A stretch of DNA of 64,000 nt. Source: Gemmatimonadota bacterium (GTDB lineage Bacteria > Gemmatimonadota > Gemmatimonadetes > Longimicrobiales > Gaopeijiaceae). The notes under the pieces were generated by a model. The model worked only from the letters and a program-made list of their open reading frames with translations. It did no database searches and was not told where the DNA came from. Position 1 is the stretch's first letter; each line of letters begins with the position of its first letter. Location of the stretch: NCBI GenBank assembly GCA_034521595.1, contig JAXHMG010000003.1:960001-1024000 (forward strand). Reading direction: 5' to 3'. Positions 1 through 50,057 of this stretch are shown here, piece after piece. The position numbers and the translations under genes are program-made.

Positions 1-281
1 AGGGCGCACGCGAGGCCGGTGCGCTTGTTGCCGTCGTTGAAGCCCTGCGTGCGGGTGAATCCCACGAGGTACGCCGCCGCGAAGTCCGCGAGATCAGCGT
101 CCGGGTCGGAGGCCCACCGGTGCCTGGGCCGCGCCAGAGCGGACCCGATCACCGTGCCGTCGAGGACCCCGTGCGCTCCTCCGAACCGCTCGATCTGCTG
201 GGCGTGGCTGGCCAACAGCATGGGCTCGGTGAGCCATCGCGGTTCTTCGCCTATCCCCGCTCGCTCACTTGGCCAGTTCAC
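1..281 (-). CDS. Doc/Fic-family toxin (3' end runs off the window; start uncertain)
   Basis: Hand translation gives ...EPRWLTEPMLLASHAQQIERFGGAHGVLDGTVIGSALARPRHRWASDPDADLADFAAAYLVGFTRTQGFNDGNKRTGLACA. It has a Doc-type xxFxDGNKR motif and lies directly downstream of an AbrB-like gene. Confidence 0.8.
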   Translation of the reverse strand, partial: MNWPSERAGIGEEPRWLTEPMLLASHAQQIERFGGAHGVLDGTVIGSALARPRHRWASDPDADLADFAAAYLVGFTRTQGFNDGNKRTGLACA

Positions 282-498
282 GAAACACGCCATCGTACTC
301 GGACATGATCGCTTCATGTGCCTCCGTCGCCTCCGTGAGCTCGGGCGTGTGCGGCACCACACGGAACCCGCCTAGCCCATCCTCGATCCAGCTCAGCTCC
401 TGGCCGGCCGGGATGCCGAGCCGCCGCACGACCTCGGCGGGCAGCGTCGTCACAACGGAGGCGCCCTGAGCCCTGGTCCTGCTGGTCAGTGTCGTCAT
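265..498 (-). CDS. AbrB/MazE/SpoVT-family antitoxin
   Basis: 77 aa with the swapped-hairpin pattern QGASVVTTLPAEVVRRLGIPAGQEL and C-terminal YDGVFRELAK typical of Doc partners. RBS AAGGAAG upstream. Confidence 0.85.
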   Translation of the reverse strand: MTTLTSRTRAQGASVVTTLPAEVVRRLGIPAGQELSWIEDGLGGFRVVPHTPELTEATEAHEAIMSEYDGVFRELAK

Positions 499-569
499 GC
501 TTCCTTCTTCCCCCCTCAGGTGGTGCCACTAATGTTACACTACAGCATAGTCGAGTCGCCCGGCCACCG

Positions 570-1623
570 TCAACACGACCCGATCGGTGGCGGGACGAGG
601 TTCGCGGGAATGAGCGCCTGCGGCCTGCGGCCGGTTCGCTCCATGTACGCTCGGGTATAGACGCGGATCTGCTCGCCGCCGTCGTAGATCTCGACCAGGT
701 GGACCTCCTCCGGCGCATAGGTCGCCAACATGGATAGGCCACACGGGACCGGCATCTCGTCGATGAGAACTCTGGGCTGGACGGCGCTCGCCCGCGACCG
801 GATAGCAGTCGGCGCTCGCGGAGCGCCCCTCGCACGGGGTGAACGGGACCGACCCGTGGTTCCTGAGGAACTGCACGACGTCCGTAGCGCCGGAGCGACG
901 GAGGCGACCCTCGTCGAACGCCCGCACCGGCCCGAAGCCGTAGGCGTTCCGGCGCTGCTCGAACCTGCTGACCATGACCTCGATGCCTTCGAGCATGATC
1001 GGGTCCGGCTCGAGCTCCACGACGAGCGGCTCCACGTCTCCGCCGAGGGTCACCGGCACGTAGATGCTCTCGTAGCCCAGTCGCTCCACCAGGAGGAGGT
1101 GGGAGCCGGGCGAAGCGTCGTCGATCCGGAAGCTTCCTCGACCGTCCGCCGACTGCGGCCGTCGGTCGCCCAGGCGGAGCAGGGCCCACGGCAGACCTTC
1201 GCCGGTTCTCGCGTCGACCACCGCCCCGGCCAGCACGCTCTCGGAGCGGCCCGTCACCTCCATGCCCTCGAGAAGGAGGGGACGAGGCTGCAGGTAGAGC
1301 TCGAGCCGCTCGGGTTCGTCTCCGACGCGCACGGGCACCACCAGGTCGTCGTACCCGAACCGGCTGATCCGGAGCAACTGGGGCCCGTCGGGCGCGCCGT
1401 CGATCGAGAACGCCCCCGCGTCGTCGGTGAGCCCACGGAGGTCCGTGCCCTCCACCAGGACCGAGGCGTTCGAGACCGGAAGCTCCGTTAGCTCGTCGCG
1501 CACGACACCAACCAACGCACCGCCGCTCTCCGGTGGCTGCTGCGCCGGCAGGTCCGGAGCACACACGCATAGGACCACCACGGGGAATGCCAGGTGGGGC
1601 GCGTGTCGGGTATCGAGTCTCAC
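570..1623 (-). CDS. Exported protein with two carboxypeptidase-regulatory-like domains and a C-terminal TonB-plug-like segment (frameshift near 790)
   Basis: Signal peptide and two repeats of G-V-D--TG--L--A-V...G-F-I...RxGY. The reading frame continues as VLIDEMPVPCGLSMLATYAPEEVHLVEIY in ORF 570..755. Confidence 0.7.
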
Positions 1624-1638
1624 GTCGTGATCGCGGTC

Positions 1639-2781
1639 CTAAACATCCGGCGGCTTTGCGGTCTGCGTGTCTTCGAGACGAACGCTGATGACCTCCATGC
1701 GCGTATCGCCGTTCTCGGTTTCCGTGACGGTGTACATCGACTCACTTCCGCATACCGGTGCCAGCCAGTTGTCGTGCCGGCTCCTCGTGACCAGGGTGCT
1801 GCTCGCGATGTCGATCACCTCCACGACGGTGTCGAACGTGGCACGGGTCCATTCCGGCGTCGGACCGCCTTCGGGCTCCGCCCTCCAATCGTCGTCAGGG
1901 ACCGCGGAGTACACCCACAGCAGGCCGGACCGGCTCTCCCACACGTGTTGCACGGTCATCGGCGGGGGCTGCGTTACATAAGTCTCTTCGTCCCACTCGC
2001 CATAATCTTCGAACCACGGTCCGAAGTCGTCGGGCGTGGCCACGAGCCCCGTGTCACTCGTCCATCGGTGGAACCGGTAATCCCAGATGCTCGCCGCCCA
2101 GAAGCCGCCATCTCGGCCCTTCGACAACACCCAGTGATCGAGCTCGGCGAGTTCCGGTCGCGTCTGCCCGATGGATTCGATCACGTCTCCGTCGTGAAGG
2201 CTCAGGATGGAGAAGAGGGGCTCGCCGGAATTCCCGCTTGGACGCCGACTCAGGGCCATCAGGCTATCGTCGAGGACCGCCCATCGTCCCACCCTGAAAT
2301 TCAGGGGAACAGTACGAACGGGCGCCCCCGACCCATCCTCCAGCAATACGATGCGGCTGTTGGAGTGGTCGAGCACGTAGGCACCGACGCTACCGCTTCC
2401 TGGATGAATGCGAAGTCTGCGACCGAACTCTCGAGGTCCTTGGCCTTGACGCCCGATCACTCGGATTGCCGGACCTCCTTCGGCGCCATAGACAAGGATC
2501 TGTCCTCCACCAACGGGCGCGGCCATCCAGTACTCCCCGCTCGCGACCTTCGTGACCGCGCAGCCATCTTGAATGGCATCAGGACTCACCGACGCGGGAT
2601 CCGTAGATGCGCCGAGCGCCGCTACAGTCTCGAAGCGAATGCGGCATTCCGGGCAGCTGGGGTCCGAGTTCGAAGGATTCCCTGTAGCGCCATCCCGGGC
2701 GGCTTCGCAGCCCAGCGAACAACACATGGCCAAAGCCATGATGGACGTTCTGACTCGAGCAGTGCGGAAAGCCATGGCCAT
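1639..2781 (-). CDS. 6-bladed beta-propeller lipoprotein (paralogue 1)
   Basis: Lipobox-like CSLGC, motif GRQGQGPREF, RBS AAGGAG before ATG 2781. Confidence 0.7.
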   Translation of the reverse strand: MAMAFRTARVRTSIMALAMCCSLGCEAARDGATGNPSNSDPSCPECRIRFETVAALGASTDPASVSPDAIQDGCAVTKVASGEYWMAAPVGGGQILVYGAEGGPAIRVIGRQGQGPREFGRRLRIHPGSGSVGAYVLDHSNSRIVLLEDGSGAPVRTVPLNFRVGRWAVLDDSLMALSRRPSGNSGEPLFSILSLHDGDVIESIGQTRPELAELDHWVLSKGRDGGFWAASIWDYRFHRWTSDTGLVATPDDFGPWFEDYGEWDEETYVTQPPPMTVQHVWESRSGLLWVYSAVPDDDWRAEPEGGPTPEWTRATFDTVVEVIDIASSTLVTRSRHDNWLAPVCGSESMYTVTETENGDTRMEVISVRLEDTQTAKPPDV

Positions 2782-2921
2782 GCGTCTCCGCTCCTTCCAT
2801 CGCGGGGCGTCGTGCTCGTGCGACCGTAGATCGCGACCGAGCGGTCGGCAAGGGTTGCGGAACGCGTGCGGCTGCCGAAGACTCGGCTTAGTCGCTCCCC
2901 GAGAGAGGAGGTCGGATCGCA

Positions 2922-4199
2922 ATGACCAACAGGCCAACCTCAGCGCTCATCCTGGCCACCGCCGCCGCCGTCGCCGGGACCGCGACCCACGCCGGAGCGC
3001 AGGACCAGTGCGAGTGGACGCTTGAGGAGACGCTCCGCGTAGGCTCCATCGACGGGGATGACGCGCTCTCGGGTGTCCTCGACTTGGACATCGGACCGGA
3101 CGGAATGCTCTACGTCGCGGAGCAGTTCGTGCCCCACATCACCGTGTTTACACCGGACGGTCGCCCAAGCCACACGATCGGCCGTGCCGGCAGTGGACCG
3201 GGGGAATTCGACCTCAGTGCGGTCTCCCTCGGTTGGAGGCAGGACACCCTGTGGGCCACGGATCGCGCCACGACCCACTTCTTTCCGCCGGACGGCACGG
3301 ACCCGCGCCAGGTCGAGTTCAGGATCCCCCGTCCACACGAGGGCTCGCGGCTCATTCCGAGACGACCGCTCGCCGACGGCACGTTTCTGGCCCGACGATG
3401 TGCGATGACGGCCGGTGGGGGCAGCATGGAGGACTTCTTCGGTGCGGAGAGGCTACCGGTGCTTCGAGTTTCGGCTTCCGGCCGTATCGTCGATACCGTC
3501 GACACCATCGCTCTCGCTCGGCAGCAGATGTCCGTCGGGATCGATCACGGCAGTAGAAGAGGCATCGGCTACGCCGAGCATCCGCTGAACGGCTCATGGA
3601 AGGGCTTCGCACGGTTCACGCCGAGCATCGACGGCTCGTCGATCTTCATGATCGGCGAGATCCGCGACGAGGTCCGTCCCGCGAGCTTCGACCTCCTGCA
3701 GATCGATCTCTCGGGAGACACGCTCATGGAGCGCACGATCCAGTACGAGCCCAGGCCCGTGACCGACCGGGACCGGACCTGGTTGACCGAACGATTCGCG
3801 AGCAATCAAGCCGGCGACTACGATGACGACTCCCGCACGTCCCCTTTCCCCCCGCGGGACGAAGCCGCCCGCGAGCGGGACCGCCGGGCCGCGCGGGAAT
3901 CCATCACGTTTCCCGAGCATCATCCCCCGGTGCGGGACATCGTGGCGGGGGACGACGGCACGATCTGGATGCTTCGGGAACTGGACATCCCCGATCTGGT
4001 GGATCGCTGGGAGGTGTACGGTCCCACCGGCGAGCTCGAGGGCACCGTGCTCATCCGCGAGGGACGCTCGGCTCGCGCTCCCTGGTATCCCCGGCTGAAC
4101 GTGCTCCACGCTACGCGCGACGAGCTCTGGGGCACGACCTTGGGTGAGTTCGATGTGCCGTATATCCACCGGTATCGTGTCGATGCCGGTTGCCGGTGA
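2922..4199 (+). CDS. 6-bladed beta-propeller exported protein (paralogue 2)
   Basis: Signal peptide ending AGA-Q, motif GRAGSGPGEF, C-terminal EFDVPYIHRY, RBS GGAGG. Confidence 0.8.
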   Translation: MTNRPTSALILATAAAVAGTATHAGAQDQCEWTLEETLRVGSIDGDDALSGVLDLDIGPDGMLYVAEQFVPHITVFTPDGRPSHTIGRAGSGPGEFDLSAVSLGWRQDTLWATDRATTHFFPPDGTDPRQVEFRIPRPHEGSRLIPRRPLADGTFLARRCAMTAGGGSMEDFFGAERLPVLRVSASGRIVDTVDTIALARQQMSVGIDHGSRRGIGYAEHPLNGSWKGFARFTPSIDGSSIFMIGEIRDEVRPASFDLLQIDLSGDTLMERTIQYEPRPVTDRDRTWLTERFASNQAGDYDDDSRTSPFPPRDEAARERDRRAARESITFPEHHPPVRDIVAGDDGTIWMLRELDIPDLVDRWEVYGPTGELEGTVLIREGRSARAPWYPRLNVLHATRDELWGTTLGEFDVPYIHRYRVDAGCR

Positions 4200-4276
4200 G
4201 GGCCGCTCTCGATCGCTCGTGTAGCATCGCCGCCATGGCGTGGACGTTCTTCTCAGACTTCGTCATGGTGGGACAA

Positions 4277-5497
4277 ATGAGCTGGACCGCGACACGGATG
4301 GGCGGCGTGATCTTGGCTTCCGCTTCCATGCTTCTCACCTCCTGTGTGGCACCCGACGGGCCGGTGGGAGCCGCGATGTCCATGGTGGATTCGGCCGGCG
4401 TGAGAATCGTCACGACCCACCGTCTCGAGTGGGATACTGTGCGGATCCTCGAGGAACAGCCGGCGGCCGCCTTTCCGGGAGACCGGTCTTCGGCGGCTCT
4501 CTCCCGCGTGCGCGACGCGGCCGTCGTTGGAAATCGGGTCGCGGTCCTGGATAGCCAGGAGGAGCGGGTGTTCCTGTTCTCCGAAGCCGGGGAGCCGGAA
4601 GATACGGTCGGCGGTCCCGGCCAGGGCCCGGGAGAGTTCCGAGCTGCAGTCTCCATGACCGTGGCCGACGGCAACATTCACGTCTTCGATCGATCTCTTC
4701 GGCGGATCACTCAGTTCGCCCCGGATGGGACGATTCGCCGCCTTGTCTCGCTACAGGCTCCGGATTTCCCAGGGAAGCAGCATGTCTCCTACGCTTGGAT
4801 GGTGGATGCGGATCGAGTGCTCGTCTGGGAGTATGTCGAGAGTGAGCAGGCCCCTGTCTCGAGCTCGGGCGACGCGGAGCGATGGGTCACGCCCGGAAGG
4901 CTCCGCCTTGCCAATCTCGCGACGTCGGGGGTGGAGACCCTCTTTCGTGCTCCAGCCAGAGACTGGATCGTCGAGGGGAGCCGATGGTGGGTTGCCCCGT
5001 TCGGGCCGTACACGACGCTTTCGCACGCGAACGGTCGGCTATACATGTCCCCGGGTTCTTCCCACGCGGTGCATATCATCGATCCCGATTCGGGGTGGGT
5101 CGCCAGCTACCGGTATCCGGCTGCGGATCGGCCGTTCGATCTACGGGAGCTCGCGCGACTCGAGGATGAGGCCAGGGTGGAAGCGTCGGAGAGCGGGCAC
5201 CCCTTCATGGCGGAAGTGCTTTTCTCGCCGGACATCCAACCCCCCATGCAACCGGCGATCCAGCGGGTGCGGGTCACGGGGTGGGGAGCAGTGTGGGCCC
5301 AGGTGCATGCGCCGGCCCAGCATCACTCGCCCGACTGGTGGGTTCTCGGTGCCGACGGACGGTTTCGCGGCATCGTTCGCCTGCCTGGTCGGCGCGAGCT
5401 ACTCGGCTTCGACGGCGACTATGCTATCATGCGGTCACTCGATGAGTTCGACGTGCCGACGGTGGAACTGTGGAGACTACCCGCCGACCTCCGGTGA
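4277..5497 (+). CDS. 6-bladed beta-propeller lipoprotein (paralogue 3)
   Basis: Lipobox LLTSC, DSAGVRIV, GGPGQGPGEF, C-terminal DEFDVPTVELW. Start codon uncertain. Confidence 0.75.
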   Translation: MSWTATRMGGVILASASMLLTSCVAPDGPVGAAMSMVDSAGVRIVTTHRLEWDTVRILEEQPAAAFPGDRSSAALSRVRDAAVVGNRVAVLDSQEERVFLFSEAGEPEDTVGGPGQGPGEFRAAVSMTVADGNIHVFDRSLRRITQFAPDGTIRRLVSLQAPDFPGKQHVSYAWMVDADRVLVWEYVESEQAPVSSSGDAERWVTPGRLRLANLATSGVETLFRAPARDWIVEGSRWWVAPFGPYTTLSHANGRLYMSPGSSHAVHIIDPDSGWVASYRYPAADRPFDLRELARLEDEARVEASESGHPFMAEVLFSPDIQPPMQPAIQRVRVTGWGAVWAQVHAPAQHHSPDWWVLGADGRFRGIVRLPGRRELLGFDGDYAIMRSLDEFDVPTVELWRLPADLR

Positions 5498-5524
5498 AAC
5501 ACGAACCTCGGATGGCATTGTCTC

Positions 5525-6589
5525 TCACTGTTGATGCTTCTCCGGTGTCGACCGGACGAGGCGAACCTGCGGCCAAGGAAGATTCGAGCCGAACAACCGT
5601 GTTCCGGAAGCCGCATGGAGGAGGCGAGGCATGTCTTGGTTTCGTTCAATGATCGTCCCGGACTCGCGGTCCAGCACCCAAGTCGTAAGGTCTCCCTCGT
5701 CGATCTCGCGGTTCTCGAAGTCGAGCACGGCGTGTTGGACCACGAGCAGATTGTCATCGAAAGGGGACGTCGCGGCCAAGAAGTGCTGACTCTCCGTCTC
5801 CGGGTCCGGCACGATCGCCAACCCACCCCTGTCCGTGACCTGAAACCCGACTTCCCGGTAGTCGTCCAACTCGGTCGTCCACCGCTCTCTCCCGTCCACA
5901 GTGAAGGCGGTGACCCGGGGAGTGCTGCGGTGCACCTCGATGACCTGAGCGTTTTCGGCGTCGCAGACGAGTGCGGCATCGGAGCGGCTCTGTAGCGCCG
6001 ATTCGACGAGTCCAGGGGAGGCCCTGAGGTCCAGCTCCGGGAGGTCTCCGAACGACTGAACGAGCTCACCCGTTTCCAGCGAAAGCTCGTGGATCGTCAT
6101 CCCTTCGTGGATGCCCTGAAGGAACACCCGGCCGTCCATCGAGCAGAAATCCGAGAATAGGCCGGGGACGCTGAACTCTTCGACGAGCGAGAGGTCGTTG
6201 GAATAGAGCGACAATCGCCGATTCCCCTGGTCGAAGACCAGTGGCCTGTCCCCCTCGAGCAGGGTCACCGCGGCGAGCACGTAGAATTCGCCCGGCCCGC
6301 GTCCGGATCCCCCTGTGCCATGGAGGAGATTCCCTTGGAAGTCATAGAGTCGGAGCCGCTGCATCCGGGAATCCACCAAAGCGAAGACCTCCTCGCCCAC
6401 GTAGCCGTCCTCGACGAGCCCGATGATCTCGGTTTCATCACCCTGTCGCTCTCCGACCACGATGCTCGCATCGACCGTCGCGAGACGGTCCTCGGCGGTC
6501 TGAGCTGAAAGGGGTGCCGTGGAGAGAAGTACGGTCAGCAGCGTTGCTCGCGTCAAAAGCGTTGTCATGCGAGCCACGAGTTCGAGCAT
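5525..6589 (-). CDS. 6-bladed beta-propeller exported protein (paralogue 4)
   Basis: Signal peptide ending LSA-Q, motif GGSGRGPGEF. Confidence 0.75.
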   Translation of the reverse strand: MLELVARMTTLLTRATLLTVLLSTAPLSAQTAEDRLATVDASIVVGERQGDETEIIGLVEDGYVGEEVFALVDSRMQRLRLYDFQGNLLHGTGGSGRGPGEFYVLAAVTLLEGDRPLVFDQGNRRLSLYSNDLSLVEEFSVPGLFSDFCSMDGRVFLQGIHEGMTIHELSLETGELVQSFGDLPELDLRASPGLVESALQSRSDAALVCDAENAQVIEVHRSTPRVTAFTVDGRERWTTELDDYREVGFQVTDRGGLAIVPDPETESQHFLAATSPFDDNLLVVQHAVLDFENREIDEGDLTTWVLDRESGTIIERNQDMPRLLHAASGTRLFGSNLPWPQVRLVRSTPEKHQQ

Positions 6590-6692
6590 ATTTCCACCAC
6601 CGAGGAGAATGCTCACTAATACCAGATCCCCTTCTGTCTCATCGACGTGGATGGGTTCCGCCATCCGTCCGCAGTCTTGCTTCGGTCGTTCG

Positions 6693-7925
6693 TTAATTCT
6701 GGGCACCGACCTCCCATACCTCGACATACTCTTCGTCTAGGCGAGTGCGCCTGAGCAGAGCGATCCGATCCCGCCCCACAGCAAGTAGTTCTGTCCGCCC
6801 TGGCAGATAGCCGAACTGCTCGGTCGGCACCTTCAACTCCGCTTCTGGGATGCCGTCCGGAGAGAATATGACCCATCTTCGAAGTGCTTCTCCCGGGATA
6901 GTGGCCTCTCCGATCCATAGCGAGCCATCGGGATCAACCTGGAGGCCTTCGAAGCCCGGTAGGGTCTCGTGTATGGGCGCCTCGTTCCAAACCTTCCGGA
7001 TCCCCTCGTCGTCCAGAGGAACCATGGACGATCTCCTCTTCTCCCATGCCGATTCCTCACTTCTACCGACCTCTCCGTTTCGGCCCGGAGCTACGATGCG
7101 ACGCAGCGGGGCCATATCGGAGTCGTAGACCATGACATCCAAAGAGTCAGTGGAGCCTATAGCGACTCGCTCCCCTCCGGATGCGTGGAAGACCGTTCTT
7201 GCGAAACCGATCGGAACCAGGAAGGCGGTGCTCCTCTCCAGGCTACCGAAAGCGCGCTCCAGGCCTTTCCAGACACCGACCGTATCCGGTCCGTTGCCGT
7301 CGGCGTCCCACGTCAAAAGAGGTACCGTGTCCCTCCGTTCACCACTGCTCTGGAAATAGCGCTGCTCTCCGAGCACCGCGGCAACTCGACCGCTATCGGA
7401 AACCATGAGAGGTACGAGAGAAACCACTGGGTTCTCGTAGCCCAGCCGCACGACCTCCATGAACTCCGCGTCCGGGCTATACCTTGAAAAACGGTTATAA
7501 TCCCAAGCTGTGAAGCCGCCATCCGCGGCCGGGAGGAGCTTGGTCAACCGTTCGAACTCTCCGGGGCCCTGGCCCCGACGACCGATGCGGCGTGAGGAAG
7601 TCCCTTCGCTGCCCAAATGGATCAACTCTTGCGATCCGGTGTTGGCCAGCACCAGCGACCCGTCGGGTAGGAACAACCCGTCCAGCACCTCAAAGAGCTC
7701 AACCTCTCGCCCGTCAACATCCCGAGTACTGAACAGCCGTCTGGCTGAGAGCTCTGGCAGCGAAAACTCCTTCAGCGGTGGAATCTCCACCAGCTGCAGG
7801 CCCGCCGAATCGGAGACTGTGACCTCGGGACGGTCAAGGGTGGGAGCCCCATCACAGCCCATGGCGGTCAGCAGCATCAGCAGCGCGATCCATCCAGCGT
7901 CGGCATGTAGGTCCCGATCCGCCAT
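6693..7925 (-). CDS. 6-bladed beta-propeller lipoprotein (paralogue 5)
   Basis: Lipobox AMGC, DSAGLQLV, GRRGQGPGEF, RBS GAGG before ATG 7925. Confidence 0.8.
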   Translation of the reverse strand: MADRDLHADAGWIALLMLLTAMGCDGAPTLDRPEVTVSDSAGLQLVEIPPLKEFSLPELSARRLFSTRDVDGREVELFEVLDGLFLPDGSLVLANTGSQELIHLGSEGTSSRRIGRRGQGPGEFERLTKLLPAADGGFTAWDYNRFSRYSPDAEFMEVVRLGYENPVVSLVPLMVSDSGRVAAVLGEQRYFQSSGERRDTVPLLTWDADGNGPDTVGVWKGLERAFGSLERSTAFLVPIGFARTVFHASGGERVAIGSTDSLDVMVYDSDMAPLRRIVAPGRNGEVGRSEESAWEKRRSSMVPLDDEGIRKVWNEAPIHETLPGFEGLQVDPDGSLWIGEATIPGEALRRWVIFSPDGIPEAELKVPTEQFGYLPGRTELLAVGRDRIALLRRTRLDEEYVEVWEVGAQN

Positions 7926-7986
7926 GTTGCCTCGAGTTCGTTCAATTCGCCCGCTCGTCCCGATAGGGCCAGAAGCCTGCGATGTC

Positions 7987-8147
7987 AGTTGATGTTCAGA
8001 TGTTTCTGACGTGGCCACAGCATACACGCTCATGTTTCCTGGGCCTTCGGAATGCACCTGTCAGGATACGATTCCCGCACGCTCGATGCCATGTTGGTCG
8101 GAGCGAACGAGGTGAGCGGAGTGAGGACCTAAATGGGCTTGTCAGAT
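7987..8147 (-). repeat. Decayed attC-like site of the same ~160-bp family as 54370-54531 and 55674-55833
   Basis: Shares GTTCAGATGTTTC-GACGTGGCCAC and GCCATGT-GGTCGGAGCG with those sites and has the same length. Its minus-strand ATCTGAC end directly follows the stop codon at 8148. Confidence 0.65.
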
Positions 8148-8357
8148 TCATTCGGGGCAGTGGCCGAAAGAGCAGCAATAGAAACCCGTGCAGTCTTGGC
8201 TACCACAAAGCTCGCAGCAGCCAGTGCAACTGAAATTATAGCATTGGCAGACGCTTGCACTGGGACTGGCCACCAACGGAGATCCGGCGAGGAAATAGCC
8301 AGATGCGGCCATGAAGAGAAAAAGGCCGATCGCTCGAACGGAGGCGAACTGCTTCAT
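8148..8357 (-). CDS. Small secreted cysteine-rich peptide (69 aa, 10 Cys)
   Basis: RBS GAGGT 5 nt before ATG, then a Sec-type signal MKQFASVRAIGLFLFMAASGYFLAG, then VCQCYNFSCTGCCELCGSQDCTGFYCCSFGHCPE. Confidence 0.75.
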   Translation of the reverse strand: MKQFASVRAIGLFLFMAASGYFLAGSPLVASPSASVCQCYNFSCTGCCELCGSQDCTGFYCCSFGHCPE

Positions 8358-8434
8358 TTTGACCTCACTTTTCTAGGGTGTGAGCAACGAGCGGGGAGGC
8401 ATCGTGGAGAGACTCCCTCCTCGTAACGGACCAC

Positions 8435-8956
8435 TCATTGTGACTCTGAGAGAAAGGCGCTTATGTCGAGCAGATCGACGAACGAGGTTGTACGGACAAG
8501 GCTCGTCCTGTTGAGGTAGGACACGCCCGCGTATCGACCCGCACCATCGAGCATCACAACGGCCGGTGTGGTCGGCGTTGTCCCAAGAACTTTTTCGGGG
8601 TTCACTGGCTGTACGTCGCCAACGCGCAGCCTCTCCTCCCTAATGAACCGCTCGACGTCCCCGGAGGCGTCATCGTATCTCCACACGGTCAGTTCCAACC
8701 CGGCAGGTTCTACCTGGGTGCGGATGAGGTCTCGGACCTGGCGTCCGAGATCTTCGCATGAGAGAACGTCCACTCCACTTACGATGAGCACCACCTGCTC
8801 ACTGGCCTCCCTGGCTGGTAAGGCATCGGGGAGCTGACCCGAAAAATCTTCAAAAAGAGGGTCCTCAGTAACGGTGCCCGGAAGGGCCTGCACCGCGATG
8901 CGCCCCCCGAAGCCCGTGACCAACCCACACAGCGCAACAGCAAGCATTTTCCTCAT
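8435..8956 (-). CDS. Exported/membrane-anchored thioredoxin-fold protein with degenerate CXXC
   Basis: N-terminal hydrophobic stretch, VVLIVSGVDVLSCEDL (xXXC), and cis-Pro-like TTPAVVMLDGAG. Confidence 0.55.
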   Translation of the reverse strand: MRKMLAVALCGLVTGFGGRIAVQALPGTVTEDPLFEDFSGQLPDALPAREASEQVVLIVSGVDVLSCEDLGRQVRDLIRTQVEPAGLELTVWRYDDASGDVERFIREERLRVGDVQPVNPEKVLGTTPTTPAVVMLDGAGRYAGVSYLNRTSLVRTTSFVDLLDISAFLSESQ

Positions 8957-8960
8957 GGCC

Positions 8961-10010
8961 TCAGCTCCCAGTGTCGAGGATACGGAGAAGCACGAACGGA
9001 TCGTGGGCGTCGGACGGATTCCGAAGCACCAATCCGCGTCCCTCACGGTCGCGCCCCAACAGACCGGCGTCCGCGAGGCGAATCGATGCGATGCGATGAA
9101 GTAGGTTAGGCGGCGCTGGAGCGAAGAGTGCAATTTCCCCCCCCTCAAGGGGGTTCCACCGCACCGACTCTTGGTTACCCATCTCTGCCGTCCGCACTTG
9201 AACCAAGGCGCGGCAGCCTGGGAGCGCTACAACACTTCGAACGTGGGGGCGGTCCTCGGCGAGAGTCGACTGCCGGTTGGGGACGTCAGGCCATCGTTCG
9301 GAAGGGTCCCAAACTCCCGCCGCTAGCTGACGGCCCTCGTAGTCAAAAGCCCGCAGGCTATCCGAAAAGGTCGATGCGGCGAAGATGCATCCGTCGAAGG
9401 CGTCTGCGAGGATGCGCTCGGCGCTCTCGATGGCGGGATTGGTCCGATACCACTCGGAGAGGGCCATGAAGGACGCCTCCACGGAACCCTGGAAATCGAT
9501 GACCTCGAGGAGCCCCGCTCCATCTGTGGCCGACTGATAGACAGCAAGGAGCCGATCGGGGCCCAAATATCTAATCGCGATGGGCTGGCGTGCACGGCGA
9601 TCCTGGACCAGGGAAGTGCGCGATATCTCGGATCCGAGGTTGTCTAGAAGAACAAGCTGTGAGTCGAGGAAGTCATACGCTCCAACGCCGCGCTCCATTG
9701 GGAAGACAGAAAGGACCGTGCCAAACTGTCCGGGGCCGCGTCCAGCGGAGCCGATTGTCCTCAAACGGTGACCACCGTGCGAATACACCTTGATGTTGCG
9801 GTCCGAGAAGTCGACCACCCAGAACGAACTATCTAACCGCTCAACGACCTCCCATGGTCGTGCCAGAATGGATTCTGACCCGTCCCGGAGTTCCGCGACG
9901 CGTTCGATAACAAGCTCCGGCGAGCGAGAGACTGTGGGCTTCTCGATCGCGAGTGATGCAAGGCCGAGGCAACAGAAGACTGCCGTCAGTCCGGAACGTG
10001 TTCGATACAT
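8961..10010 (-). CDS. 6-bladed beta-propeller exported protein (paralogue 6)
   Basis: Signal peptide, WVVDFSDRNIKVY...GSAGRGPGQF, RBS GGAGG. Confidence 0.8.
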   Translation of the reverse strand: MYRTRSGLTAVFCCLGLASLAIEKPTVSRSPELVIERVAELRDGSESILARPWEVVERLDSSFWVVDFSDRNIKVYSHGGHRLRTIGSAGRGPGQFGTVLSVFPMERGVGAYDFLDSQLVLLDNLGSEISRTSLVQDRRARQPIAIRYLGPDRLLAVYQSATDGAGLLEVIDFQGSVEASFMALSEWYRTNPAIESAERILADAFDGCIFAASTFSDSLRAFDYEGRQLAAGVWDPSERWPDVPNRQSTLAEDRPHVRSVVALPGCRALVQVRTAEMGNQESVRWNPLEGGEIALFAPAPPNLLHRIASIRLADAGLLGRDREGRGLVLRNPSDAHDPFVLLRILDTGS

Positions 10011-10136
10011 CGACCAACCTCCGAGAATCGCTGCCTGGGTATGGGACCCACATTGAGGGGCTGAAACCGCTCCTACAAGACGTCGTCGTAAGCCCGACGG
10101 AATGACATATTTTCGACGGTCCGCCCCATCGGAGGC

Positions 10137-10442
10137 TCAGGCGTCTTCAAGCTCCCTTTCGAGCACCTGCAGGTACTCTGAGATGCGTGCTATAGCATCG
10201 ATGGATCTCGGCGAGGAGGGGCCAAGTCCATCGGGGGGAGGTGGGAGTAGTTCCCTGATATCGGTATTCAATGCCTCTGACACTCCGACGAGCACTTCCA
10301 CGCTGAGTTTTGACCTGGACATCTGGGACACCAATGTCGTTCGAGGAACGCCCGCCTCGTCGGCTAGCCATGTCCAAGACCTACTGCCAAGCCGACGTGT
10401 AATTTGTCTCCGGATGTACTCCTGAAGATTGCGCCCACGCAT
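10137..10442 (-). CDS. XRE/Cro-type HTH transcriptional regulator
   Basis: SWTWLADEAGVPRTTLVSQM...VSEALNTDIRELL, RBS GGGAGG. Confidence 0.7.
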   Translation of the reverse strand: MRGRNLQEYIRRQITRRLGSRSWTWLADEAGVPRTTLVSQMSRSKLSVEVLVGVSEALNTDIRELLPPPPDGLGPSSPRSIDAIARISEYLQVLERELEDA

Positions 10443-10713
10443 CGCAAACCTCCCGCCCTAACGAGCCAAACCTCAGACTCCACCTCCACCTCCTTTTCGG
10501 CTCTATGCCGGATAAGTGCACCGACCGAAGGACCTACGGGAGGGCATTTTCACCGAATCGCGAGCAATTTCACCAGAACGTGACACGCACGTCCTCGACG
10601 CCGATCGAGAACACCGCCGATACGCTGCTGTCCCGAACTTGCGAACCTCCTCCAAGGCGCGTAGGGTGCTTTCTGGGGCGATCCAGCCCTTGGGGCAGGA
10701 GGCGTTGTGGATC

Positions 10714-11578
10714 ATGGGCGACCCGTCTAGCGCTGTCCGGATTGAGGGATCCCGGCCTGGGTTCTCGAAGGAGCACTATGTCCCGGTCCTCTTGGAACGG
10801 CCCCGGACCGGAATGGACCGGCTCCTGGAGTCGCCGTACAGGCGATACGCGGATCGAGCGGAATTCGAGGCGGTCTTGACCGAGGTGCCCCTCGCTTTGG
10901 TGGTCGTCGATGACGCCGAGCCCGGATTCCGAGCTTGGTTCCGCACCCTCCGCCTCCGGCACCCGGCCACTCGGTTCGTTTGTCTCGCTCCCCTCCAGGG
11001 TCCGGTGGCGCGGGAAATCGTGCGAGCGCACCCCGACGACGTCGTGTGGTGGCCGGATGAGTTGGGGGGACTTCAACCGCCGTGTCGGACGGTTGGCGGA
11101 ATACAGCCCGCGCGGCTGTTTGGAGCGGATGCTCGAGGGGGCCGGGTCTTTCCACCTGACCACCGGCGTCGCCATCCGAAGGATGTGCGACTTGCGACAA
11201 CCGGCCGTGACGCAGGTGCAGGTGTTGGCGCGGGAGGTGGTGCACGCGAGCGAGACGAAGCTTCGGACGGATTGGCGAAAGGATTTCGGGCACTGGCCGG
11301 TCAAGTCCGTGATCCATTGGGTGCTCTGGTTGCGTGCCGCCTGCCTGTTCGATCCGGCCTGGACCACCGAGCGGAACAGACTGCGAATCGCGATGGAGCT
11401 CGGTATTCACGAATCGACGCTCGACCGGATCTCGAAGAAGGTCACCGGGCGGACGTTCGCCCGGAGCATGGCTGAGCCCCACCTCGGAAGGTCGCTCGAG
11501 GCGTTCGAAGCGCTCTGGAGAGCGGTTCCGTTCCCATCGCCCCATTCCGGCACCCATCCCCGCCACCCAACGTTTTGA
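10714..11578 (+). CDS. Pseudo-receiver plus AraC-like HTH regulator (frameshift at G-run ~11064-11069; start uncertain)
   Basis: ORF 10516 supplies LALVVVDD...RLRHPATRFVCL. ORF 10910 supplies LAREVVHASETKLRTDW...IAMELGIHESTLDRISKKVTG (HTH). Confidence 0.55.
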
Positions 11579-11635
11579 CCCACCTCACGCGTCACACTAA
11601 TGTCGCGGATATCGGGCGGTCCGGTCGCCGCCCGC
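11365..11635 (+). repeat. 271-bp direct repeat, copy 1
   Basis: Aligns by eye without gaps to 16497-16767, with about 6 mismatches. Confidence 0.95.
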
Positions 11636-11712
11636 ATCTGACGTCACCGGCTCGGCCCCGGGGCCGAGCCCGTTCTCGACCGACGTGCCCCAACCGGTCA
11701 CGGGTGCCGAGG

Positions 11713-11875
11713 ATGTGACGTTTCCCTGAACCTCGGTGACCTTGCGCGCCTTCTTGAGTTCGGGCTCGGCCCGCTTCCGGAGCTTCTCGGCCTCGCTCTC
11801 GGACGGGTGGCCCCGCTTGTGGCCCCGACGGCGGCCAAGTGCGTGCAGGGCGCCCTCGTCCCGCTGCTTGCGGAC
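11713..11875 (-). mobile_element. IS3-family OrfA transposase remnant
   Basis: RKQRDEGALHALGRRRGHKRGHP...EKLRKRAEPELKKARKVTEVQGNV resembles the C-terminal leucine-zipper part of IS3-type OrfA. Confidence 0.55.
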
Positions 11876-12039
11876 GGGATCAAGCCGGTGGTGACAGTAG
11901 CCGCTCTTTGGCTGTCCCAACTTGCGCCCTCCGCCGCCGCCAAAGAGGACCCCCGGCCCACTCTACTACCCCAGGTCCGTGAGAGTCGGCGATGTCCCGC
12001 AAGAAAAGGGTTGCGCATCCCCCACCGCTGCCCGTACTG

Positions 12040-12161
12040 TGATAAGAACTGCACTGCAGTTTTATTTTGGCCGTGGAGCCACGATGGATACGAGAGTTGA
12101 GCAGTTGGAGCTCGCGTGGCAGACCGGAAAAGACGTGGGCGCCGGTGTGGTTTACATGGGC
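12040..12161 (+). pseudogene. Internally deleted padR remnant with upstream inverted repeat
   Basis: EQL...AWQTGKDVGAGVVYMG matches EQL...ARQTGKDIAAGAVYTG of padR at 13363. The upstream ACTGCACTG and GTGGAG..ACGATG are also shared. Confidence 0.7.
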
Positions 12162-12230
12162 CAACGACGTGGCTCTTGGTACCCATCGGACCGTTCGTCG
12201 AGAGACGCTCCGTATCAGAAATTGAGGAAC

Positions 12231-13295
12231 ATGCGAAAGTCACACGATTTGTCGCTCCGCCCGGCGCTCGTCGGCCTAGCCCTTGTCCTCTTTATACTCG
12301 CCGGTGGAGGATGCGAACCGGGATCCGGAGAAACAGTAGCAAATGCTTCGCAGTCATCGCAATCAGGCCGCGACGCGGAAGGGTGGCTTGGGGAAGCGGA
12401 ATTCTCAATCGGTGTGCTTGAGGGTGATGACGATCAAGTTCTCGGCAAGATAGCAGCCGTGGCAGTCCCGGAGAGTGGCTCAATCATAGTCGCGGATTCC
12501 TGGGCGGGAGACCTTCGCCTCTTCGATGCCGGTGGTCGGCACGTGAAGACCGTAGGCAGGGCAGGCGCCGGGCCAGGTGAATATACGGCTATCGGGGCCG
12601 TATTATCTGAAGGGGATCGAGTGATCGCTATCGATCGCACGGGTAAGTTTACTGAGTACGACAACGATTTGAACATGAACCGAGAAGTGCGGCTTCCGTT
12701 TCTCCCAATGAAGCCCGGATGCCTTCTGGACGACAGGTTGGTATTGGGCGAGAGCATAGGGGAATCGCGACGACCTTTTCACATCGTCGAGTTGAACGGC
12801 ACTGTCATCGGATCCCTGGGGGTCTGGCAGGAGAGCGAATCAGGAGCCATGCGCAATCAAAAGGGAGAGGGTGACTTTGATTGTGCGGATGGGGTCTTGG
12901 TGCATGCGACGAGTGCCGACGGTGTCATCAGAGGGTGGGATCTCGTAAGTGGGAAGCTGAGGTGGGAGGAGGAGATTCCTGACTACATGGAGCTAGTATA
13001 TCGGCAACTCGACGGTGGAGCCGTGGAGGTTGGTCTGCCAGATGGTGTATCAGCATACGACCGAGTCGAGGGCCTCACTTCTACGGGAGACGGGCTCTTG
13101 CTGCAGGTTGGCAGACGAAGAGCGGAGGATCCAACAGTGGTGGTTGGTATGCGCTCTTGGTTAGTCGATTCAGAGACGGGAACGCTGACACCTCTGCCGT
13201 CCGATATCCCCCGGGTGACAGCTGCGAGTCACTCCCGGATTGTTACTCTGCAGGAGATACCATTTCCGCAGATTACAGTGTACGAAAGGCGGTAG
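12231..13295 (+). CDS. 6-bladed beta-propeller lipoprotein (paralogue 7)
   Basis: RBS GAGGA, lipobox AGGGC, motif GRAGAGPGEY. Confidence 0.8.
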   Translation: MRKSHDLSLRPALVGLALVLFILAGGGCEPGSGETVANASQSSQSGRDAEGWLGEAEFSIGVLEGDDDQVLGKIAAVAVPESGSIIVADSWAGDLRLFDAGGRHVKTVGRAGAGPGEYTAIGAVLSEGDRVIAIDRTGKFTEYDNDLNMNREVRLPFLPMKPGCLLDDRLVLGESIGESRRPFHIVELNGTVIGSLGVWQESESGAMRNQKGEGDFDCADGVLVHATSADGVIRGWDLVSGKLRWEEEIPDYMELVYRQLDGGAVEVGLPDGVSAYDRVEGLTSTGDGLLLQVGRRRAEDPTVVVGMRSWLVDSETGTLTPLPSDIPRVTAASHSRIVTLQEIPFPQITVYERR

Positions 13296-13362
13296 CTGGC
13301 CCGAGGTTGCTGCGACATTCTCTAAAAGGTGATACTGCACTGATTGTGGCTGTGGAGAGACG

Positions 13363-13717
13363 ATGAGCAGGGGGCTCGGAGAGTTTGAGCAGTTGCTGCT
13401 TTTCGCGGTGCTCCGGTTGGGGAAGGAGGCGTACGGTGTGCGGATCCGGCAGGAGATCGCGCGGCAGACCGGAAAAGACATCGCCGCCGGTGCGGGTCTA
13501 CACCGGCTTGGATCGGCTCCATAGCCGCGGCTACGTCACCTCTTACCAGGCAGAGGCGCCGCCGAGCCGGCGTGGCCGTCCGAGGAAGTACTATCGAGTC
13601 GAGCCTGAAGGAGCCCGTGCGCTCCAGTCGACCTACGGGAACGTCCGCCGCATGGCCGAAGGGGTGCTCGATGACCTGAATGCGCTGGCCGACGCTCCTG
13701 CCGGGGGCAGCACATGA
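13363..13717 (+). CDS. PadR-family regulator (+1 frameshift near 13495)
   Basis: MSRGLGEFEQLLLFAVLRLGKEAYGVRIRQEI...GA / VYTGLDRL...GRPRKYYRV. The stop overlaps the ATG of the ADOP gene. Confidence 0.85.
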
Positions 13718-16401: not shown

Positions 16402-16496
16402 GGTGAACGTTCGACGCCGGTGTTCCGCTCAGTGCGCGCACAGCGGGCGGGGGTCCCCCCCGTGCCGGAAGCCTGTAGGTCCGATTGTTCCGACAG

Positions 16497-16767
16497 CACC
16501 GAGCGGAACAGACTGCGAATCGCGATGGAGCTCGGCGTTCACGAATCGACGCTCGACCGGATCTCGAAGAAGGTCACCGGGCAGACGTTCGCCCGGAGCA
16601 TGGCTGAGCCCCACCTCGGAAGGTCGCTCGAGGCGTTCGAAGCGCTCTGGAGAGCGGTTCCGTTCCCATCGCCCCATTCCGGCGCCCACCCCCGCCACCC
16701 AACGTTTTGACCCACCTCACGCGTCACACTAATGTCGCGGACATCGGGCGGTCCGGTCGCCGCCCGC
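16497..16767 (+). repeat. 271-bp direct repeat, copy 2 (3' fragment of the AraC-like gene plus RND upstream region)
   Basis: Near-identical to 11365-11635. Confidence 0.95.
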
Positions 16768-16786
16768 TCACCTACGAGGCCACGCG

Positions 16787-19424: not shown

Positions 19425-19426
19425 AG

Positions 19427-25700: not shown

Positions 25701-25965
25701 CCTGATGACCACCATCACCACCGTGCTCGGGCTCTTGCCGCTGGTGGTCTTCGGGAACGCGGCCGGGTCGAACATCTGGGACGCGCTCGCGCTCGTCCTG
25801 ATCGGCGGGCTGCTCTCATCGACGATCTTCGTGCTGACGATCACGCCGGCGGTGTACCGGCTGCTCGAACGCCTCCGTCCCGCGGGCGCGCCCGTGATGC
25901 CGGGGATCCCCGTCGGCGCGCGCGGTGGGGCATGGACCCCCGCGAGCGCGCCCGAGGTATCATAG
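22774..25965 (+). CDS. RND transporter permease subunit 2
   Basis: RRPVAI, GLIVDNAIVVLEN, RVRPILMT. Confidence 0.93.
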   Translation: MIRQSLRRPVAITMLYGAVALLGIAAWRNVPIEILPDTELPQLTVTASWPGASPETLEAFLTAPLEGAIQQVRGVERIVSTSSEQDGRGMAEIQVEFERDIDMDFARLDLSERLATLEESLPAGADPVQVEQYVPEEFEEQSRPFLQYTFTGPYTLEALRQHLDDVVAPELGQVDGVALVSVFGGRERRLEIRLDEEAIAALDLDAAAVRQAILDLDLVREAGVVREGDSERTLTIANRPQNPEDIRGAVLGVAGGTPVRISDVATVHDTYEDARRLSRVQGRPAVGFRIFKSVGVNTVAVADAVKARMAELEPLAPFGADYVLEFDESEDIRGQLSDLRTRALVSALVIFLVLLAFLRSFRSAGLVFATIAFSVLIALNLIYFGGLTLNLLTLMGLAMGFGLIVDNAIVVLENIYRRKQRGASAADAADRGAREVVLPIFASTATTLIVFVPFVYLQGEVRVFYVPLAIVVALTLGASLLVAFTFIPALAARILGGGPDGGTSSGASPSGDPEPDETASRPPFYARFYADVVGFTVRHPVPAIVVTLAAFAGSYHLFDRYVSRWAMWGGGWGAETYISVNIELPRGSNLERTDQLVRYFEERVGAMPEVERYSAQIRPNQASMEITFPDSLESTSVPVVIKEQMVAFSHTFTGADVRVYGYGPSFYGGGGSPPNYGIQVLGYNYERVRDIAEDIGTRLTRLSRVVEVDTNASSNRFVRDRASEFTLEVDRDRLAQHALTVEELVDGIGAAVAGNSRLSYLKLGGDEVQIQVKLERNQDLDVVALRETLIPTPSGRRIRLGDVIRVQQREVLAQIRRENQQYERTVAYEFRGPTRLGDVVHEAVIGGTDVPPGYTVQAGQNNWFVSQEDREQIWMVLAVALLLVYMVTAALFESLLRPFSVILTVPMALIGVYLIFFYTGASFTREAYIGVIMMLGVVVNNAILLVDHVNRVRAEAPELSLEDAIVRGTVERVRPILMTTITTVLGLLPLVVFGNAAGSNIWDALALVLIGGLLSSTIFVLTITPAVYRLLERLRPAGAPVMPGIPVGARGGAWTPASAPEVS

Positions 25966-49932: not shown

Positions 49933-49970
49933 TCCGCATCCCTCACTGACCTAGGCGGCATGTCTGAGGT

Positions 49971-50023: not shown

Positions 50024-50057
50024 GGCGTTGGGCCGTGTTCGGCCAGAGCGATCGCGA

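Follow-up and report, generated by a model that had tools for sequence, protein, structure and literature searches.

A conserved trio of propeller, thioredoxin-like and cysteine-rich peptide genes in Gemmatimonadota: a possible envelope module

What could unite a beta-propeller, a thioredoxin-like protein and a very small cysteine-rich peptide whose genes follow one another on one strand of a bacterial chromosome? The question is raised by a 64,000-nucleotide stretch of contig JAXHMG010000003.1 (positions 960,001 to 1,024,000 of the forward strand) in the assembly GCA_034521595.1 of a Gemmatimonadota bacterium; this whole stretch is referred to below as the window. An initial annotation had described positions 1639-13295 as a candidate secreted disulfide-peptide system composed of a helix-turn-helix (HTH) gene, seven beta-propellers, a thioredoxin-fold protein and a 10-Cys peptide, with ADOP and RND/TolC exporters (RND, resistance-nodulation-division) downstream, and all of these genes are indeed present. 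On the minus strand, the order is HTH gene, propeller, thioredoxin-like (Trx-like) gene and Cys-rich peptide open reading frame (ORF). The propeller in this run (8961-10010, minus strand, 349 amino acids (aa)), called here the cassette propeller, is a putatively exported protein with a six-bladed NHL-type fold and is the first gene of a conserved trio. The second gene (8435-8956, minus strand) encodes P0003, a 173-aa protein with a divergent TlpA-like thioredoxin fold and an N-terminal hydrophobic stretch which could be an anchor or a signal. The third (8148-8357, minus strand) encodes P0001, a 69-aa peptide precursor with a Sec-type signal and a predicted mature part of about 33-35 aa containing 10 Cys. 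Signal peptides and lipoboxes throughout were judged by eye and with a hydropathy rule, without a dedicated predictor. The GC content of the window is about 65%, the parent genome comprises 3.49 Mb in three contigs (93% complete), and the relatives sharing the trio genes are Longimicrobium and Gemmatimonas metagenome-assembled genomes (MAGs). The system therefore belongs to Gemmatimonadota, and the Bacteroidota setting in which the initial annotation had framed it does not apply.

Positions 8148-10010 constitute a conserved unit of three co-oriented genes inherited together, as is confirmed by its recurrence elsewhere. Homologues of P0003 include P0004 (70% identity) and P0005 (68%). Three genomes of the genus Longimicrobium carry a Trx-like homologue (E 1e-12 to 1e-14), and in all three loci a propeller, the Trx-like gene and a signal-peptide ORF with six Cys follow one another on one strand. 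Further loci were collected via family alignment from a species-genome collection (five loci, three of them new), from metagenome contigs (six) and from a sample of the phylum. This gave 18 distinct loci, since L018 is the same as L017 and L019 the same as L016, while L023 and L033 coincide with L022 or differ little from it; each was counted once. Of the 17 loci that can be assessed on the upstream side, all 17 have a cassette-type propeller immediately ahead of the Trx-like gene (L032, with 136 bases upstream, was excluded), and a Cys-rich ORF of the kind defined below lies downstream of that gene in 15 of the 17 that can be assessed on the downstream side (L031 was excluded, the contig ending 78 bases past the gene). 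The full order of the trio on one strand is found in the window and in L015, L016, L017, L020, L021, L022, L027, L028, L029, L030, L034, L035 and L036; L032 keeps the order of Trx-like gene and peptide. The recurrent co-location in relatives which the initial annotation had anticipated is thus observed, and the peptide is conserved along with it.

The genes of the trio are also tightly coupled. In the window, the likeliest start of the Trx-like gene is ATG 8956 (giving 173 aa) rather than 9148, 4 bases past the propeller stop codon, and the peptide ORF starts 77 bases past the Trx-like stop codon. In L015, L016, L020 and L021 the stop codon of the propeller gene shares an ATGA with the start codon of the Trx-like gene, and in L020, L021 and L022 the Trx-like and peptide genes overlap in the same way. 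One protein, P0103 (505 aa), consists of an N-terminal cassette-type propeller and a C-terminal Trx-like domain (VCENLGHQ); no other fusion occurs among the 150 Trx-like representatives listed out of 201. Divergence proceeds in parallel in the three proteins of the trio, and the peptide is not hypervariable. Between L021 and L022, the propeller, Trx-like protein and peptide are 70, 69 and 78% identical, with 91% identity in the last 36 residues of the peptide; between L015 and L020 the corresponding values are 52, 43 and 44%. The distribution of the trio is sparse: it was found in 8 of 401 genomes sampled across the phylum, this genome counted, and a Trx-like homologue in none of six genomes of the same genus. 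The unpublished genomes G037 and G056, which were among the relatives searched, contribute to negative counts only.

The peptide ORF is a real and conserved gene. P0001 begins with a hydrophobic, signal-like N-terminus, its ATG is preceded at a distance of 6 nt by a Shine-Dalgarno-like motif (GTGAGG), all ten cysteines (C37, C39, C44, C47, C48, C51, C56, C61, C62 and C67) lie in the last 33 residues, and Trp is absent. A search with this single sequence gave no homologue in 5.8 billion word-indexed clusters, and the best E value among 60 relatives was 0.03; homologues surfaced via synteny and afterwards via a profile. Six cysteines are invariant in the alignment A2 of seven peptides (C39, C44, C47, C51, C61 and C62 in P0001 numbering), and the A2 profile retrieved 19 further peptides (E 2e-9 to 5e-25), labelled 'hypothetical protein' wherever the source names them. 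The common core can be written as C-x(4-10)-C-x2-C-x3-C-x(5-9)-CC, followed by 0-11 trailing residues (7 in P0001), which are often hydrophobic. The distant loci L027-L030 encode shorter peptides with 4 or 5 Cys, likewise ending in CC. The number of cysteines is even (4, 6, 8 or 10) in 14 of the 16 peptides from the 15 peptide-bearing loci. The family has no match in Pfam or NCBIfam; P0001 itself matches no Pfam family at E<=0.1, and at E<=1 there is one unrelated weak match.

For counting, a peptide ORF had to be 30-130 aa long and contain no more than 12% Arg. A basic residue was required among its first 15 positions, a hydrophobic stretch of 12 residues within positions 1-40, four or more Cys among its 45 C-terminal residues and a CC among its final 12. 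The ORF also had to start on the same strand between -150 and +500 bases relative to the Trx-like stop codon. Besides the 15 loci with a qualifying ORF in this zone, the trio loci contain one more co-oriented ORF that qualifies and no qualifying ORF in the opposite orientation, and the whole genome (3.49 Mb, both strands) contains five, P0001 among them; since the criteria were chosen after the examples had been seen, these counts describe a pattern and are not a blind test, but the contrast is very large nonetheless. It is the invariant cysteines, the profile matches and the expected position in 15 of 17 loci that establish the gene.

At L028:1970-2364 one Trx-like gene is followed by a tandem of two different Cys-rich ORFs with signal peptides, one with 4 and the other with 5 Cys, each of which ends in CC. 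P0001 also contains a CCELC and CTG stretch, which we take to resemble the core of heat-stable enterotoxin; the stretch is absent from other members of the family and no family model matches, so the enterotoxin reading was rejected and the likeness taken as a coincidence.

The thioredoxin fold assigned to P0003 by the initial annotation is borne out by structure and profile comparisons. In Foldseek, the AlphaFold2 (AF2) model of P0003 (predicted local distance difference test, pLDDT, 76.3; residues 1-31 disordered) matches DsbF, ResA, CcmG, TlpA and DsbE at E 1e-5 to 1e-3 (4pq1, 3lwa, 2f9s, 1kng and 4txv at E 1e-5 to 7e-4), as well as the Trx-like part of human NHLRC2 (6gc1) and, more weakly, Sco and TlpA-Sco structures (1xzo, 4txo). 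The separate ESM Atlas model of P0003 finds the same fold families (TM-score 0.56-0.62), and hhalign relates the Trx-like family to six Redoxin-family paralogues of the same genome (92.5% probability, E 5e-7). At the level of sequence families the protein stands apart: the Trx-like family has no Pfam or NCBIfam match even at E<=1, the nine members of alignment A3 are all negative against Redoxin, AhpC-TSA and Thioredoxin_8, and a search of the sequences of solved structures with the family profile gave chance-level matches only. Exhaustive HMMER search of 1.84 billion representatives yielded 201 family members at E<=1e-3, of which 152 are at E<=1e-10.

The active site of the family is peculiar. 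It was read from 152 aligned sequences, namely P0003, P0004 and the 150 representatives listed out of 201. In these, C67 is invariant (149 of 149; the other three sequences are fragments missing that column) and is followed by a near-invariant E-D-L-G-R-Q-x-R. The first cysteine of a CxxC is missing in 127 of 152 sequences, position 64 being Cys in the other 25 and otherwise V, L, I, W or another residue, so that the family motif reads [V/L/I/C]-x-[T/S]-C-E-D-L-G-R-Q; a cis-Pro-like TPA motif is also present. In P0003 the active site is V64-L-S-C67 (VLSC), not a CxxC. By alignment, the invariant cysteine is that of the second position of the ancestral CxxC, and P0003 has lost the first, nucleophilic one. 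A peptide gene follows CxxC forms in L021, L022, L032 and L035 and single-Cys forms in the window, L015, L016, L017, L020, L034 and L036; the forms in L025 and L026, where no peptide was detected, are CxxC.

These features bear on the initial proposal that the Trx-like protein aids oxidative folding of the peptide. The genome encodes DsbA-family proteins (five matches) and DsbB (one match), so a general oxidative folding system exists in the host; VKOR was not found in this 93% complete genome. P0003, whose VLSC lacks the nucleophilic Cys, cannot be a classical oxidase. Since most members of the family keep the second Cys only and the genome has DsbA and DsbB, it is improbable that the peptide disulfides would be formed by the Trx-like protein as oxidant, and this part of the proposal is given up.

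A peroxiredoxin-like role of the single cysteine was also considered. The peroxiredoxin motif has Thr three and Pro seven residues before the peroxidatic Cys. C67 aligns with the peroxidatic Cys of a BCP-like paralogue, but Thr at -3 and Pro at -7 are both absent, and the candidate was rejected. Elsewhere in the genome, four Redoxin-family (TlpA-like) matches lie within 5.3 kb at G000:C3:318344-323640, two of them with an in-frame TGA; the matches at 318344 and 322034 were among the six comparison sequences used for the active-site alignment.

The cassette propeller is modelled by AF2 with pLDDT 84.1, and the model is a six-bladed NHL-type propeller. In VIA-align, it superposes on the NHL domain of Brat (5ex7) with Z 22.1, a root-mean-square deviation of 3.6 and 260 aligned residues, and the NHL domains of Brat, TRIM71, TRIM2 and TRIM3 score Z 21-22. 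The longest alignment (308 residues, Z 21.3) is with the Bacteroides DUF4221 protein 3s9j (BVU_1028); 4raa (BF0058) follows with Z 20.8 over 285 residues, peptidyl-hydroxyglycine amidating lyase with Z 18.3 and the lumenal domains of SOQ1 with Z 17.3-17.8 (17.8 for 7djl). Across loci, lipoboxes can be read in the translations of many cassette propellers. The DUF5128 type to which the initial annotation had likened the propellers holds for two of the seven in the window (31.8 and 39.8 bits), three score below the gathering cut-off of 22.9 bits and two have no match; the cassette propeller, with 12.8 bits against DUF5128 (PF17170), is among those below.

The initial annotation had also treated all seven propellers as parts of one module. 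The unit of propeller, Trx-like gene and peptide stands, but only the propeller at 8961-10010 belongs to it, and the other six are divergent paralogues. The window propellers are old paralogues: each carries a GxGPG(E/Q)F motif, and identities among them are 23-30% in alignments of more than 120 residues. A profile of the seven recognizes 20 such ORFs genome-wide (3.49 Mb), seven of them in this 11.7-kb cluster. The six others are p1 (1639-2937, minus strand, a putative lipoprotein without Pfam match), p2 (2922-4199, plus strand, DUF5128 16.2 bits, below the cut-off), p3 (4190-5497, plus strand, 31.8 bits, above it), p4 (5525-6727, minus strand, 15.6 bits, below it), p5 (6693-8057, minus strand, a putative lipoprotein with the lipobox TAMGC in its translation) and p7 (11922-13295, plus strand, a putative lipoprotein with 39.8 bits).

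The way in which the trio could have entered this genome is suggested by a repeat lying next to it. In a DNA search of same-genus genomes, little of a 17-kb stretch was matched except the flanking genes and one 140-base piece, which was matched many times. This piece corresponds to window positions 7982-8121 (plus strand), between the stop codon of the peptide gene and the likely start codon of p5 (ATG 7925, beyond the piece), and is a decayed copy of a repeat of about 165 nt. With nhmmer, 31 copies were found in the genome, and the window copy has E 1.5e-33 over model positions 19-159 of 184. Full copies start ATAAC-GTTCAGATGTTTCCG, finish CCGGAAACATTCTTGTTAT and have terminal inverted AAC...GTT cores; their ends pair with bulges in the predicted fold, and this anatomy is, as modelled, that of the attC sites of a chromosomal integron. 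In the window copy the centre is kept and both terminal boxes have diverged. It is solitary, 0.9 Mb from the array described next, and on the minus strand it is situated just 3' of the peptide gene, where the attC site of a cassette would be.

The array consists of 17 co-oriented copies at C3:609-32697, spaced by 0.4-12.6 kb (mostly 0.4-3.7 kb), within 33 kb of a tyrosine recombinase gene, and its copies separate HigB/HigA, ParE/Phd, HepT/nucleotidyltransferase (MNT), SnoaL, DUF6932 and propeller-lipoprotein genes. The recombinase (C3:34259-35458; Pfam Phage_integrase and Phage_int_SAM_4) is the best IntI match of the genome, matching in two stretches of 109.5 and 102.5 bits which sum to about 212 against the TIGR02249 cut-off of 265. 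Terminal cores and small or toxin-antitoxin cassettes are features shared with chromosomal integrons; a recombinase which scores below the IntI cut-off and is oriented in the same direction as the cassettes is not.

Several further copies were observed. The first cassette beside the recombinase is a propeller lipoprotein (C3:32771-33961). At G000:C3:1517111-1518722 a propeller fragment (1517950-1518345, minus strand) lies between two attC-like repeats in a cassette-like arrangement of about 1.3 kb. Three later copies, one of them partial, are found in the window (49958-50025, 54355-54529 and 55658-55835) and another past its end (C3:1025064-1025245). The same-genus genome G003 has at least 40 repeat matches, with arrays at C1:983-1017 kb and C2:765-774 kb.

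Codon third positions have a GC fraction of 0.58-0.67 in the genes of the trio, the HTH gene, p5 and p7 and of 0.72-0.81 in p1-p4 and the MacB-like gene, which suggests a separately acquired block, within 6693-13295, larger than the trio. The trio, or a larger piece holding it, probably entered as an integron cassette and was then fixed. Such a capture has to be stated conditionally, because both ends of the attC-like copy are lost and no upstream boundary was found; together with the remnant, it would fit the patchy distribution of the trio (8 of 401 genomes in the phylum, none of six in the genus). A second kind of mobile context is represented by L021, a Gemmatimonas MAG, in which transposase genes of insertion sequence (IS) type (rve integrase, DUF4096, HTH_38) flank the trio at 973-1875 and 6898-8401.

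The trio was compared with several known systems and is a member of none of those tested (NHLRC2/SOQ1, TlpA-type proteins, DUF5128, bacteroidetocins and the named classes of ribosomally synthesized and post-translationally modified peptides). The nearest analogues are NHLRC2, of animals and some bacteria, and SOQ1, of the plant thylakoid lumen, in which a TlpA/DipZ-like Trx domain is fused to an NHL propeller with six blades. This pairing of folds is extracytoplasmic in them and, by prediction, in the trio as well. In NHLRC2 and SOQ1 the Trx-like domain comes first within one polypeptide, whereas the trio genes are separate with the propeller first, an order seen also in the fused P0103. Unlike NHLRC2 and SOQ1, the trio has a dedicated Cys-rich peptide gene downstream, and it has no family match at the sequence level. 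The NHLRC2 motif is given as CC(I/V)NC (PMC6107167), unlike the [V/L/I/C]xxC-EDLGRQ of the trio. The same study places the active-site motif facing the cup of the propeller and reports no conserved neighbours in seven bacterial genomes (PMC6107167). For SOQ1, a preprint describes the Trx-like domain as a redox-active disulfide reductase (bioRxiv 10.1101/2024.11.01.621559).

Proteins of the TlpA/ResA/CcmG/DsbE/DsbF group share their fold with the Trx-like family; unlike these enzymes, the family has no Pfam match, mostly lacks CxxC and has its own CEDLGRQxR motif. Bacteroidales DUF5128/DUF4221 propellers are the best full-length structural matches of the cassette propeller and are likewise exported and expanded into paralogues; unlike the DUF5128 proteins, the cassette propeller scores below the family cut-off and belongs to a different phylum. 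Bacteroidetocin clusters resemble the trio in combining a small Cys-containing secreted peptide (here predicted) with an adjacent thioredoxin-type gene. According to the sections available of the bacteroidetocin paper (PMC6671954), these clusters include a double-glycine leader, an ABC transporter/peptidase and a five-transmembrane protein and have no propeller, and the adjacent thiol oxidoreductase gene is required for full activity of the peptide, which its deletion attenuates. The trio differs in its Sec-type signal, its propeller and its Trx-like protein mostly without CxxC, and no such transporter is present among the flanking ORFs scanned. In the literature searched, judged by titles and abstracts, no description of a cassette of propeller, Trx-like protein and Cys-rich peptide was found. 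On NHL and thioredoxin-like proteins only the papers on NHLRC2 and SOQ1 proved relevant, and no paper was found on DUF5128 or on NVEALA, the type of small peptide said to neighbour such propellers in Bacteroidota.

Methylamine dehydrogenase has a seven-bladed heavy chain and a Cys-rich light chain with the Trp pair of the tryptophan tryptophylquinone (TTQ) cofactor. Membership of the trio in this (mau) system was rejected, the propeller being six-bladed and of NHL type, P0001 having no Trp and Trp not being conserved in A2; the relation is a loose analogy only.

With little more than even confidence, the trio is read as a self-contained, Sec-exported envelope module in which a split NHLRC2/SOQ1-like pair would handle a dedicated disulfide-rich mini-protein. 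Since all three proteins carry signals or lipoboxes, as judged from sequence, they should meet outside the cytoplasm. There the propeller, a lipoprotein in many loci, and the Trx-like protein could act as a pair, the split counterpart of fused NHLRC2 and SOQ1. The propeller could dock the co-encoded mini-protein as a client, and the Trx-like protein could act on the client cysteines. In members of the family with CxxC, ordinary thiol-disulfide exchange is possible. In most members, including the VLSC form of the window, the reaction would be a one-cysteine reaction, that is, disulfide shuffling or the holding of a mixed disulfide, while oxidation could be provided by housekeeping DsbA/DsbB. 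The product would be a compact mature peptide of about 35 aa with two to five disulfides and a C-terminal Cys-Cys pair. A thioredoxin domain without the first cysteine is described for E. coli YbbN/CnoX, in which the motif is SxxC and mixed disulfides with targets are formed through another cysteine, Cys63 (PMC10998233).

Several observations weigh against this reading. P0003 has no first Cys, which classical thioredoxin chemistry requires, and the retained Cys is normally buried, so that a redox role is not assured. Residues invariant among 13 aligned cassette propellers are mostly Gly, Pro and Asp of blade motifs, with no invariant Cys or His; conservation of this mostly structural kind says nothing specific about peptide binding. 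In L025 and L026 the propeller and the Trx-like gene are present and no peptide ORF is detectable downstream. P0103 could be a natural fusion or a frameshift artefact across the usual 4-base gene overlap. As to cassette capture, no upstream cassette boundary was found at the trio and both ends of the attC-like copy are lost, and the trio of Longimicrobium lies between ferritin-like and prfA genes without integron signs.

The genes around the trio do not extend the module. Apart from extra propellers, no neighbour recurs among 34 flanking ORFs annotated in eight other loci, and a second propeller stands beside the trio in only four other loci (L016, L021, L022 and L034). The HTH gene and the exporters, which the initial annotation had counted as parts of the system, are not conserved neighbours in the annotated loci. 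The HTH protein (10137-10442, minus strand, 101 aa; Pfam Phage_CI_repr 28 bits against a cut-off of 22, HTH_3 19 bits) was rejected as a component, no HTH gene being found upstream of the trio in other annotated loci. An exporter block follows the cluster in the window at 13714-25965 (plus strand), its members recognized by Pfam matches: a MacB/FtsX (ADOP-type) permease (13714-16401), an HlyD-type adaptor (16787-18001), an OEP/TolC-like protein (17853-19424) and two AcrB-type pumps (19427-22777 and 22774-25965). Its connection to the trio is not established, and of the other loci only some have exporters of these types beside the trio: L016 lies between RND pumps, L026 is ahead of an HlyD adaptor, and L022 and L036 are near MacB-like permeases. 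L017 is beside a VIT/vWA protein, and in L015 and L020 the trio stands alone between a ferritin-like gene and prfA/prmC. The ORFs selected for scanning (the window and the 34 flanking ORFs elsewhere) contain no radical SAM enzyme, YcaO protein or lanthipeptide synthetase, in agreement with the initial annotation, and no ABC peptidase-exporter was found among the flanking ORFs scanned in eight loci and the window.

Three other features of the region were recorded. The ORF at 535-1623 (minus strand), which adjoins the propeller cluster, has two CarboxypepD_reg-like domains and a weak SusC/RagA N-terminal match and is probably the start of a TonB-dependent receptor. Two overlapping frames at 10516-11578 (plus strand) are divergent from the trio; the first contains a receiver-like 'LALVVVDD', the second ends with a weak AraC/Fis-type HTH (Pfam E 0.03), there is no significant family match, and together they may be one frameshifted regulator gene. 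Rfam gave no match across window positions 1-20000 at E<=1.

Among the rival explanations, the one rated highest is the original proposal, namely a bacteriocin-like toxin or signal module with the propellers as immunity, receptor or binding proteins; it is considered unlikely and finds little support. The peptide is small, signal-bearing and, by prediction, disulfide-rich, its distribution is patchy and accessory, and its contexts are mobile (the attC-like remnant here, the IS transposases at L021), all of which would suit such a module, as would the two tandem peptide genes of L028. The bacteroidetocins provide an example of a peptide toxin served by a thiol oxidoreductase encoded along with it (PMC6671954). 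Adjoining MacB, RND or TolC-type exporters (window, L016, L022, L026 and L036) would also suit such a module, but they are not conserved beside the trio and abound in these genomes, and in L015 and L020 the trio lies alone amid housekeeping genes. The ORFs scanned contain neither a small membrane immunity gene that recurs, nor a GG leader, nor a dedicated exporter of the ABC peptidase type. Moreover, the mature peptide is conserved at least as well as its partners (91% compared with 70% and 69% between L021 and L022), unlike the products of an arms race; this strong conservation favours a fixed molecular partner.

The mini-protein could instead stay bound to the propeller permanently, held by disulfides, as a small subunit or in a cofactor-like role, and the Trx-like protein could be its assembly factor. 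The mau genes offer a loose analogue, mauB encoding a propeller, mauD a Trx-like protein and mauA the Cys-rich light chain. Tight translational coupling, the fixed gene order, the parallel divergence of the three parts and the strong constraint on the mature peptide are all in line with a stable complex, and most of the peptides aligned or read have an aromatic residue following the first core Cys and a Tyr preceding the CC pair. The blades, however, are six and of NHL type and not seven as in the heavy chain, the peptides of about 35 aa have no conserved Trp pair, L025 and L026 dispense with a detectable peptide, and no cofactor-maturation gene recurs in the annotated flanks; this alternative, too, is improbable.

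A role in soft-metal handling is decidedly less probable. The peptide would bind copper, mercury, cadmium or a similar metal in the periplasm, served by a Sco/TlpA-like helper and exported by efflux pumps. The weaker structural matches to Sco and TlpA-Sco proteins (1xzo, 4txo), the RND, membrane fusion protein (MFP) or MacB pumps adjoining several loci and a CHHNC stretch in the L021 and L022 peptides point in this direction. Against them stand the even Cys counts of 14 of 16 peptides, which fit disulfides in an oxidizing periplasm with DsbA/DsbB, the lack of conserved His and Met in the peptides, the absence of a Sco-type CxxxC plus His motif from the Trx-like family, and the lack of any recurrent metal-sensor or metal-resistance gene in the annotated flanks. 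Finally, a chance reading frame with accidental adjacency, which the abundance of spurious Cys- and Arg-rich ORFs in high-GC DNA and the fruitless single-sequence search with P0001 might suggest, is refuted by the six invariant Cys in seven peptides, the 19 profile matches, the occurrence of the ORF at its expected position in 15 of 17 loci against five qualifying ORFs per 3.49 Mb, and the Shine-Dalgarno-like motif.

The broadest claim, which is put forward tentatively and is itself rather doubtful, is that the trio represents an undescribed, widespread class of envelope modules: a split NHLRC2/SOQ1 pair with its own Cys-rich client and a one-cysteine chemistry, travelling in this genome as an integron cassette. 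New findings are the predominance of single-Cys forms in the Trx-like family, the CC signature at the C-terminus of the peptides and the integron context. Neither the Trx-like family, with its roughly 200 representative clusters, nor the peptide family is included in Pfam or NCBIfam, and it is unusual for a thioredoxin fold to have as its one invariant Cys that of the second CxxC position. For Gemmatimonadota, the attC-like remnant and the cassette array suggest that the integron cassette pool of the phylum includes exported propeller modules.

The pairing of a Trx-like domain with an NHL propeller has been conserved all the way from bacteria to humans; mutations of NHLRC2 are responsible for FINCA disease, and photoprotection in plants is under the control of SOQ1. 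What these pairs recognize is, to our knowledge, poorly understood. A bacterial pair with an adjacent client gene would be experimentally tractable and, if the broadest claim is true, the Cys-rich peptide would provide the first clue to a natural substrate of the NHLRC2/SOQ1-type family.

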